From NCBI RefSeq assembly GCF_003334355.1, contig NZ_QOWP01000023.1: a stretch of 64,000 nucleotides of DNA. The stretch is one strand, 5' to 3'. A program made the position numbers and the translations under genes. Source of the stretch: Escherichia coli (GTDB lineage: Bacteria > Pseudomonadota > Gammaproteobacteria > Enterobacterales > Enterobacteriaceae). This document shows, in pieces, positions 36,962 to 59,384 of this stretch. A model generated the notes under the pieces. It saw only the letters and a list, made by a program, of their open reading frames with translations. It made no database searches and was not told the DNA's origin. Position 1 is the first letter of the stretch, and each line of letters begins with the position of its first letter.

Positions 36962-37744
36962 CTACCCACTAACGCTAAACAACGCATACGTATTATTAAG
37001 CAACACTTCGGCAATCTCATCTTCTGGTTCCGGGCGCAACTCGCAAAGCACGTCAAACACCCGCACAGCCTGTTCCGGTCGGTTAGGCTGCCCCTGAAAG
37101 CCGTTGAGCGGCATATCCGGCGCGTCGGTTTCCAGCAACAACGATGCCAGCGGTAATTTTGCGATGACATCGCGGGTTTTACTGGCGCGTGGATAGGTGA
37201 TAGTACCGCCTACGCCGATTTTGTAGCCCAGCTGTACAAACCGCTCGGCCTGTTGCAGGCTGCCGGAAAAACCGTGAACCACGCCAGTGCACGGTAAATC
37301 GTGACGTTTAAGATGCATCGCCAGTTTGTCGTGTGTACGCCGGGAATGAAGGATCACCGGCAGATCGTAGCGTTTCGCCAGTTTCAGCTGTTCGTCGAGT
37401 AACCACTGCTGCCTCTCAAATTGCGGATCGTCGCCGAAGAGATCCAGACCGATCTCCCCCACCGCCACCACCTTCGCCGGACGCCTTTCCAGCGCCTGCT
37501 GTAGCTGATCAAGAGACACATCGCTATGTTTTTCCAACATCCCCGGATGCAACCCCAATGCGGCATACAGCGGTTGATATTTTTCCGCTAACGCCTGCAC
37601 GCGGGCAAAATTTTCCGCCTCTGTCGCCGGAACAATGATCTTGCCTACGCCCGCTTGTGCCGCGCGTTGCAGGCTGGCCTCTTCATCGCCACTAAACGGC
37701 GGGAAATCAAAATGGCAGTGGGTATCGATAAAACGGCAAATCAA
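36962..37744 (-). CDS. yjjV: TatD-family metal-dependent hydrolase YjjV
   Basis: 260 aa, MICRFIDTHCHFDFPPF... (TatD HxH motif). Confidence 0.88.
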   Translation of the reverse strand: MICRFIDTHCHFDFPPFSGDEEASLQRAAQAGVGKIIVPATEAENFARVQALAEKYQPLYAALGLHPGMLEKHSDVSLDQLQQALERRPAKVVAVGEIGLDLFGDDPQFERQQWLLDEQLKLAKRYDLPVILHSRRTHDKLAMHLKRHDLPCTGVVHGFSGSLQQAERFVQLGYKIGVGGTITYPRASKTRDVIAKLPLASLLLETDAPDMPLNGFQGQPNRPEQAVRVFDVLCELRPEPEDEIAEVLLNNTYALFSVSG

Positions 37745-44574: not shown

Positions 44575-44730
<156 letters not shown>

Positions 44731-44795
44731 AACCTGCACGTTAGTTTCCTGATGGACATTTTTCCAGCAATTACACCTCCGGCGATAATTAACTA

Positions 44796-44823
44796 TTGAC
44801 GAAAAGCTGAAAACCACTAGAAT
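44796..44823 (+). promoter_or_regulatory. tRNA-Leu (leuV) promoter
   Basis: -35 ttgacg, 16-bp spacer, -10 tagaat, GC-rich discriminator gcgcctcc typical of stringently controlled tRNA promoters. Confidence 0.7.
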
Positions 44824-44864
44824 GCGCCTCCGTGGTAGCAATTCTTTTTAAGAATTGATGGTAT

Positions 44865-44951
44865 GCGAAGGTGGCGGAATTGGTAGACGCGCTAGCTTCA
44901 GGTGTTAGTGTCCTTACGGACGTGGGGGTTCAAGTCCCCCCCCTCGCACCA
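44865..44951 (+). tRNA. leuV: tRNA-Leu (anticodon CAG), single copy
   Basis: 87-nt sequence gcgaaggtggcggaattggtagacgcgctagcttcaggtgttagtgtccttacggacgtgggggttcaagtcccccccctcgcacca with long variable arm and encoded CCA. Confidence 0.93.
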
Positions 44952-44989
44952 ATTATCTTTACTTCCTTTCTTGTTTCTTCCTTGATTTT

Positions 44990-45226
44990 TCATCCCTGAT
45001 TCAAATTCATTATCATCAGCATGATGGCAGCAATAAGCGCCAGGCACGATGGTAGCAAAACGTAATGCCGTAACTGTTTGTGATACAGCATCACCGGCGT
45101 CAATACTAATCCCATCAGAATGACAATCCGCCACTGATCCGGCGATAAATCCGCATACATCAGCCCTGCAATCAGCAATCCCGGCAGCAACACTCCCCAG
45201 CCACTGCCCAGCGTACGTTGCAACAT
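44990..45226 (-). CDS. yjjZ: Small membrane protein YjjZ
   Basis: Listed ORF contains MLQRTLGSGWGVLLPGLLIAGLMYADLSPDQWRIVILMGLVLTPVMLYHKQLRHYVLLPSCLALIAAIMLMIMNLNQG; start trimmed to the 78-aa form. Confidence 0.8.
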   Translation of the reverse strand: MLQRTLGSGWGVLLPGLLIAGLMYADLSPDQWRIVILMGLVLTPVMLYHKQLRHYVLLPSCLALIAAIMLMIMNLNQG

Positions 45227-57678: not shown

Positions 57679-57713
57679 ATGCCCGATAACATTTTGCTTA
57701 TCGGGCATTTTTA
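57679..57713. terminator. Bidirectional terminator between convergent lgoT and tsr
   Basis: Hairpin atgcccgataa-N9-ttatcgggcat followed by T-run. Confidence 0.7.
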
Positions 57714-57719
57714 TGGCGA

Positions 57720-59384
57720 TTAAAACGTTTCCCAGTTCTCCCCGCTATCTGCCACTGCCATTTTACGCGGCGTAGCTGGCGTCACGTTTTTTACCACAGC
57801 CGATGTTTCACGCTGCTGTTGCTGCTGTTGCTGAATCCGGAACACTGCCACAGCTTCGGTCAGGCGACTGGCCTGCTCTTCCAGCGCGGCGGCGGCAGCG
57901 GCAGATTCTTCCACCAGCGCAGCGTTCTGTTGAGTTACCCGGTCCATCTCAGCAACCGCTAAGCCAACCTGATCGATACCACGGCTCTGCTCATCAGAAG
58001 CAGAAGCAATTTCGCCCATAATGTCCGTCACGCGGGTCACGGCACTGACAATCTCCGCCATTGTTTCCCCTGCGCTTTCGACCAGCGTAGAGCCAACATC
58101 TACTTTCCCCACCGAGTCTTCAATCAGGCTTTTAATTTCACGAGCCGCCTGAGCGCTGCGCTGGGCCAGATTACGCACTTCACCCGCGACCACCGCAAAA
58201 CCGCGCCCTTGCTCACCCGCGCGCGCTGCTTCAACCGCCGCGTTCAAAGCCAGAATATTGGTCTGGAAGGCAATGCCGTCAATTACGCTGATAATATCGG
58301 CGATTTTCTGCGAACTGGTGGAGATATCGCGCATAGTCTGCACCACGTTATCTACCACTTTGCCGCCGCGTTGCGCCGTTTCAGAAGCACTTAACGCCAG
58401 GTGGCTGGCCTGGCGCGCATTTTCGGCGTTCTGTTTCACCGTTGCGGTCAGTTGCTCCATGCTGGCTGCCGTCTCTTCCAGCGAAGCGGCCTGTTGCTCG
58501 GTGCGCGAAGAGAGATCGTTATTGCCGGTAGCGATTTCGCTGGCACCGCTATAGATGGCATTGGCCCCGTTGCGCACATCACCGACGGTACGCATCAGCT
58601 CTCCCTGCATATAGCGCAAACTCTCTGCCAGTTGCCCCATCTCATTAGAGCCATCCACCTCAATCGGTTTCACCAGATCGCCGCCTGCAATATGACGAAT
58701 GCTGTCAATCAGGCGATTCATTGGCGCTACCAACGAGGCTTTAATACCGAACCAGACGGCGAAGATGACTGCCAGTACGACGATCATCACGCCCACCAGA
58801 ATCCACATCGCCTGGCTGTAGGAGGCATTATTATCGCTGACGGCGATATCATAGAGCCGATCGTTTTGCTCCATGTAAGCCACATACTGCTTCTCGAAAC
58901 CGTCCTGATATCCCTGGGTCGGCTGATCAAAGAACTCGTTGATTTTGCCTGCACCTAACAGTTGGATCAGCTCCGCCAGCGCATTGTGATAAATATCGTA
59001 ATTACGTTTGATCTCTGCCGCTGCGGCGGTGCTCTGACGCGGGTCACGCGGCAACGCTTCGTAATCCGCCCAGTTTTTTTCCGCCTGTTTCAGCGAAATA
59101 CTGGCACTCTCCATCAGCTCAGCAACGGTTGAACCGCTACCAATATTATTCTGATCCATCATGTAGCGGATACCCGCGCGGTTGAGGGTGTTACGCGTCT
59201 GCAACAACGCGACCCAGCTGCCATTCAGCGTGGATTGCTGCTGGCGAATAGTTTGTAAAACAGTGAAATTTTCTTTGTCATTCTTTAAGGCATTAAAGAA
59301 CAGACCGCCTGATGTCAGTTGTAAAAGGCCAAAAACGGCCAAAACCAGCAGTAAGCTGGTCACAATTTTGATACGTTTTAACAT
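57720..59384 (-). CDS. tsr: Methyl-accepting chemotaxis protein I (serine chemoreceptor) Tsr
   Basis: 554 aa, [40 protein letters not shown]...; C-terminal NWETF pentapeptide. Confidence 0.95.

Follow-up and report, generated by a model that had tools for sequence, protein, structure and literature searches.

The seven-glutamine tract in the C-terminal tether of Tsr is a common length allele of an in-frame 9-bp repeat in Escherichia coli

The window, that is, the whole stretch of 64,000 nucleotides of Escherichia coli DNA analysed here, carries on its minus strand an ORF encoding a chemoreceptor with a run of seven glutamines close to its C-terminus. The features of this locus are the following.

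57720..59384, minus strand: tsr, encoding the serine chemoreceptor (methyl-accepting chemotaxis protein I), 554 amino acids with an NWETF end; assigned from the ORF and from DNA identity to annotated tsr
57813..57833, minus strand: Q7 tract, residues 518-524, CAG followed by two copies of CAACAGCAG; two-unit allele of an in-frame 9-bp tandem repeat
57735..57812, minus strand: tail after the Q tract, with three residues differing from K-12 (T to N, A to T, E to G)
57723..57737, minus strand: codons of the NWETF pentapeptide, unchanged; from the ORF and the K-12 comparison

In 5386 of the 5426 complete E. coli genomes the ORF matched RefSeq-annotated tsr with 97-99.9% DNA identity, and it was 99.9% identical over the whole gene to tsr of strain ET745. 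A 26 kb segment around the gene was collinear with the btsT-tsr-lgoT-lgoR-lgoD region of ET745 (98.3-99.5% identity). Sequence and gene neighbourhood both identified the ORF as the orthologue of E. coli tsr. Pfam domains PF02203, PF00672 and PF00015, precomputed on a database protein identical to the Tsr of the window, gave the architecture of a class I MCP: a TarH-type periplasmic 4-helix-bundle sensor, a HAMP domain and an MCP signalling domain. The ORF ends with ...SGENWETF and a stop codon, and thus has an xWxxF pentapeptide at its extreme C-terminus. NWETF is the docking site of CheR and CheB (PMC4692393, PMC7390727).

The gene converges with lgoT, from which it is separated by 48 bp. This gap contains an 11-pair hairpin (ATGCCCGATAA...TTATCGGGCAT) followed by TTTTT (57679..57708, plus strand), which was found by a consensus scan as a pattern match only and is a probable shared terminator of the two genes. 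Downstream, tsr is followed by lgoT (MFS transporter) in the window, K-12, O157 and HS, and by a gene for a TRAP-transporter large permease in SF-173, clone D i2, LF82, A13 and BEN2908. On the upstream side there is btsT in ET745, hpaR in HS, BL21 and ATCC 8739, and a hypothetical gene in O157 and ET350. These differences between strains place tsr at a junction of variable gene content. A second short repeat in the gene, GCGGCA present in 3.2 copies (57886-57904, minus strand), encodes a run of six alanines in the methylation helix (residues about 495-500). One 553-aa Tsr in the database (P0060) has five alanines instead of six; this form, in which the heptad register would be displaced, may reflect an error or represent a defective allele.

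The reverse complement of 57813-57833 reads CAG CAA CAG CAG CAA CAG CAG, coding for QQQQQQQ, and is flanked by ATT (Ile517) and CGT (Arg). A seven-glutamine run had been reported in an earlier note at 57812-57835; the run is real, and its exact span is narrower by one base on one side and by two on the other. It is the longest single-amino-acid run in the six reading frames of the 64-kb window. Tandem Repeats Finder detected a repeat at 57812-57833 with a period of 9, 2.4 copies and 100% match, in agreement with two head-to-tail copies of the unit CAACAGCAG, which encodes QQQ. The tract contains a 13-nt direct repeat, CAGCAACAGCAGC, whose copies are offset by 9 nt. Some antisense or off-frame ORFs in the mechanical ORF list (57803-58021 and 37333-37638) carry Leu, Cys or Pro runs. 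The first, on the plus strand, was rejected as a gene because it is the mirror image of the tsr repeat, with Leu or Cys runs, and the second, also on the plus strand, because it is an other-frame reading of a 260-aa minus-strand ORF (36962-37744).

Comparison with K-12 MG1655 showed that the tract is indeed longer in the window. The K-12 tsr gene (b4355) has 1656 nt and encodes 551 amino acids, with CAG CAA CAG CAG (QQQQ) at the corresponding place, exactly one copy of the 9-bp unit fewer than in the window. Outside the repeat 26 of 1644 nucleotide positions differ between the two genes. The substitutions that the earlier note had recognized in the nearby tail are also present: the tail reads KNVTPATP...SGENWETF in the window and KTVTPAAP...SEENWETF in K-12 (T/N, A/T, E/G). 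Both receptor genes lie between btsT and lgoT, and the proteins agree in domains, methylation region and NWETF; they differ in that K-12 has one unit, Q4 and a linker of 29 residues, whereas the window has two units, Q7 and 32 residues.

To classify the tract length in the species, the complete E. coli genomes were searched with allele-specific junction queries that seed only on an exact match (the Q7 query consisted of GGATT, the 21 nt of the tract and CGTGAA, 32 nt in all). The exact Q7 junction was present in 3801 of 5426 genomes and the exact Q4 junction of K-12 in 1208 of 5426. Searches with longer queries, evaluated by identity bands, agreed with these counts, giving about 4050-4140 genomes with a tract of Q7 length and about 1100-1290 with one of Q4 length. 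Neither junction was matched exactly in about 380 genomes, among them carriers of Q10, Q13 and point variants. Three units (Q10) were found in at least 60 genomes, including HS, LF82 and O104:H21 strains, as well as ET350 and FDAARGOS_1283. The total for Q10 is roughly 170, a figure obtained by arithmetic (1273 records at ≥95% identity minus 1102 partial-coverage records) and not by direct count. Four units (Q13) were found in strain A13, and thus in at least one genome. The window's exact 92-nt tail haplotype with all three substitutions was found in 1039 complete genomes. All differences in the tract and in the tail to which attention had been drawn are therefore common natural polymorphism. 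What had been described as a variant is the majority tract length, and it is K-12 that carries the minority allele, with the shortest tether, about 70% of sequenced E. coli having a tether of 32 or 33 residues.

Among the strains whose sequence was read only Q4, Q7, Q10 and Q13 occurred, so that the alleles with one, two, three and four units, represented by K-12, the window, ET350/HS/LF82 and A13, respectively, differ by whole units. Rare triplet-step alleles (Q5, Q6, Q8 or Q9) may exist beyond the strains read. A protein search revealed point variants inside the run (QQQQQHQ and QQQQQQH) and a few odd lengths; its best 120 matches came exclusively from E. coli or Shigella, as near-identical proteins, and carry no information on other species. 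The earlier suggestion of a slippage-prone CAG/CAA repeat was thus correct as to length instability but not as to the unit, which is the 9-bp CAACAGCAG, with no triplet steps among the strains checked.

The distribution of the alleles was examined on a neighbour-joining tree of 16 tsr genes from which the repeat had been removed. On this tree Q4 occurred in two clades, K-12/BL21/ETEC1747 and SF-173/BEN2908, the latter only 6 substitutions away from the Q7 strain clone D i2. Q10 appeared at four places, and Q13 adjoined the Q10 strain LF82. Moreover, Q4, Q7 and Q10 were each found both with the lgoT neighbour and with the TRAP-permease neighbour. The tract length is thus homoplasious, that is, subject to recurrent change, on the 16-taxon gene tree, with recombination as an alternative cause: the two clades of Q4 and the four places of Q10 indicate that gain and loss of units recur, either by slippage or by recombination. 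The simplest reading of the allele scatter would be repeated gain and loss of one unit, although homologous recombination within tsr could move alleles between lineages and make independent events seem more numerous than they are. In a sequence labelled strain EcN (NZ_CM187577.1) Tsr was identical to that of ATCC 8739 (WP_000919544.1) and the lgoT allele was the same (WP_000410144.1); apart from the repeat, only 2 nucleotide positions distinguish the two tsr genes.

For comparison with other Enterobacteriaceae, one genome per species was scanned for the back-translated motif AVAVFRIQQ. This yielded 60 loci, 55 of which had Tsr-type tails ending in xWExF. The linker between the Ile and the pentapeptide was 32 residues long in 36 of the 55 species, with a range of 29-34, and 26 of the 36 full-length Tsr orthologues had exactly 554 amino acids. 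Measured against this distribution, the Q7 linker (32) is at the family mode, the Q4 linker of K-12 (29) at the bottom of the range, and the Q10 and Q13 linkers (35 and 38) are above it. In most genera the tail starts with QQEQQ(K/R)AR, whereas the tail of Escherichia whittamii starts with QQT followed by two copies of CAACAGCAG, showing that the two-unit state also exists in a sister species. A glycine two positions before NWETF was present in nearly all orthologues (family pattern xG[DE]NWETF). The SGENWETF end of the window is therefore typical of the family and the SEENWETF end of K-12 is the departure.

These results bear on the direction of the change. As Q7 is the majority allele of the species and gives the family-modal length of both the tail (32) and the protein (554), the K-12 allele is probably derived. 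The sequence comparison suggests an ancestral Q7 in E. coli, from which the Q4 of K-12 would have arisen by deletion; the basis for this direction is a single sister species together with the conserved length, and not a rooted phylogeny of the species.

When 39 Tsr sequences from about 36 species were aligned, the signalling domain proved almost completely invariant over its last 50 residues, up to I517. Past I517 conservation collapsed, except for Q518, Q519, Q521, an RK motif and the pentapeptide. This boundary coincides with published work from the Parkinson laboratory, in which conservation reaches as far as residue 517, followed in K-12 Tsr by a C-terminus of 34 residues (PMC4692393). Since conservation ends at I517, the Q run, starting at residue 518, opens the tether by which CheR and CheB-P are kept close to the methylation sites, as had been proposed when the repeat was assigned to the linker carrying NWETF. 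With its 32 residues and the loss of conservation after I517 the tether agrees in length and in sequence variability with the C-terminal linker of the high-abundance receptors Tar and Tsr, about 30-35 non-conserved residues followed by NWETF, and it retains the positively charged RK motif and the acidic end (bioRxiv 10.1101/2024.03.07.583918). It does not differ in kind from the known tethers: the allele of the window is at the modal length, and it is the textbook K-12 tether that is three residues shorter.

Taken together, the data are very probably explained by Q7 being the common two-unit allele of an in-frame 9-bp repeat of the slippage type, near-neutral and encoding a receptor that would behave like the wild type. 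According to this explanation, the number of units would change by misalignment of the direct repeats, through replication slippage, which we infer from the sequence, or through unequal exchange, and the resulting Q4, Q7, Q10 and Q13 alleles would have tethers of 29, 32, 35 and 38 residues between the signalling domain and NWETF. The self-identity of the tract at offset 9 increases from 4 nt in Q4 to 13 nt in Q7, 22 nt in Q10 and 31 nt in Q13. In Q7 and in the longer alleles this identity would allow both loss and gain of a unit. With only 4 nt available for misalignment as opposed to the 13 nt of Q7, Q4 is predicted to be a near-absorbing state, in which lineages such as K-12 would be nearly locked. 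Locking at Q4 fits the observation that Q4 is found in coherent clades and Q10 is scattered. The repeat resembles in-frame coding VNTRs that evolve by slipped-strand mispairing in being a perfect tandem repeat with whole-unit alleles that are scattered on the gene tree. It differs from them in that it is very short (1-4 units of 9 bp), has no on/off effect, and is located in a cytoplasmic signalling protein rather than in a surface antigen.

The expected effect of one unit can be estimated from Tar. With Tar tethers of 22, 29, 34 and 46 amino acids the peak of the CheR distribution was found to shift linearly by 0.128 ± 0.048 nm per amino acid (0.233 in an alternative fit), and the distances between sites and anchor are 2-7 nm (PMC10561060). 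At these slopes three residues would move the reach of CheR by about 0.4-0.7 nm. Relative to K-12, CheR and CheB would thus be held on a tether three residues longer, and their reach along the methylation helices would be moved by well under 1 nm. An effect of the three residues on adaptation is plausible in principle, but the published Tar data suggest that it would be small, and we infer that Q7 is functionally near-neutral with respect to Q4. The Tsr of the window is expected to be a normal wild-type serine receptor with behaviour close to that of K-12. The tether length of 32 conserved across genera may be one hint that length is not entirely free.

A different view of the tract is that the glutamines continue the last methylation helix, so that each QQQ would extend a rigid rod by about 4.5 Å and move the anchor of the tether. 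Poly-Q beside a coiled coil can be helical. Q518, Q519 and Q521 are nearly invariant in the orthologues, and the AlphaFold2 model computed with the 39-sequence alignment extends the last helix across the Q run as far as residue 528. However, this is a low-confidence monomer model (mean pLDDT 57, pTM 0.33), with pLDDT values of 53-67 in this stretch and below 50 from about residue 528 on, and the structure of a dimeric four-helix bundle is beyond what a monomer model can assess. The residues after 516/517 are treated as tether in the literature (PMC4692393, PMC10561060). The equivalent region of Tar was reportedly disordered in EPR experiments by Bartelli and Hazelbauer in 2011. On balance a helical continuation is unlikely.

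It is also conceivable that tether length is under selection, Q4, Q7, Q10 and Q13 tuning the reach of CheR and CheB and hence the speed or precision of serine adaptation by niche. The position of the CheR peak scales with tether length in Tar (PMC10561060), several alleles persist at appreciable frequency, and a linker of about 32 residues is kept across genera despite sequence divergence, which indicates that length is not free. But the same strong conservation argues for stabilising selection on 32 and not for diversification. The off-mode alleles are distributed according to clonal descent and to the asymmetry with which the repeat mutates, the small sample read showed no evident relation of allele to host or pathotype, and the shift predicted for three residues is only about 0.4-0.7 nm. 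Niche-specific tuning therefore appears improbable. That the nine additional bases result from faulty sequencing or assembly, to which short repeats are prone, is effectively excluded by the identical 32-nt junction in 3801 independently assembled complete genomes, and the gene is 99.9% identical to ET745 tsr, with frame and NWETF intact. A phase-variable contingency locus switching Tsr on and off, which a coding-region repeat with strain-variable copy number might bring to mind, was likewise rejected as having next to no likelihood: the unit is 9 bp, so that a change in copy number never disturbs the frame or the NWETF end and no on/off switch results, Q4, Q7, Q10 and Q13 are all in frame at only 1-4 copies, and no frameshifted forms were seen among the alleles read.

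The common in-frame allele that is preferred here makes the tsr of the window normal and typical of the species, with nothing new in kind. It is of some consequence for K-12, the strain behind nearly all quantitative chemotaxis models, because its Tsr tether has 29 or 30 residues by the usual counts as opposed to 32 or 33 in most related genera. In PMC10561060 the Tsr linker (30 aa, counted from I517) was taken to be shorter than that of Tar (34 aa), and this difference was argued to match methylation-site geometry. Reasoning from the tail length of K-12 reads differently with the common allele, where Tsr has 33 residues against the 30 of PMC10561060 and the 34 of Tar. A more far-reaching, and in our estimate doubtful, proposal is that the 9-bp repeat acts as a natural dial of tether length, with selection holding most Enterobacteriaceae at 32 and slipped lineages (29, 35 and 38) having altered adaptation kinetics or an altered size of the assistance neighbourhood. 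If such a dial operated, conclusions based on K-12, for instance the linker argument of PMC10561060, would fail for typical E. coli. A literature search of incomplete coverage did not find a paper describing the length polymorphism of tsr, which is no proof that there is none.

A minor observation was made elsewhere in the window. A single tRNA-Leu(CAG) gene is present at 44865-44951 (plus strand), where the otherwise collinear ET745 has three tandem copies; K-12 also has three (the leuQPV array). The single copy of the window could be an assembly collapse in this genome. A near-full-length match to 44650-45170 was obtained in only 509 of 5426 complete genomes. The single-piece matches to this segment include HS30-1 and O157:H7 6535NalR, indicating that a reduced tRNA-Leu array exists in nature.
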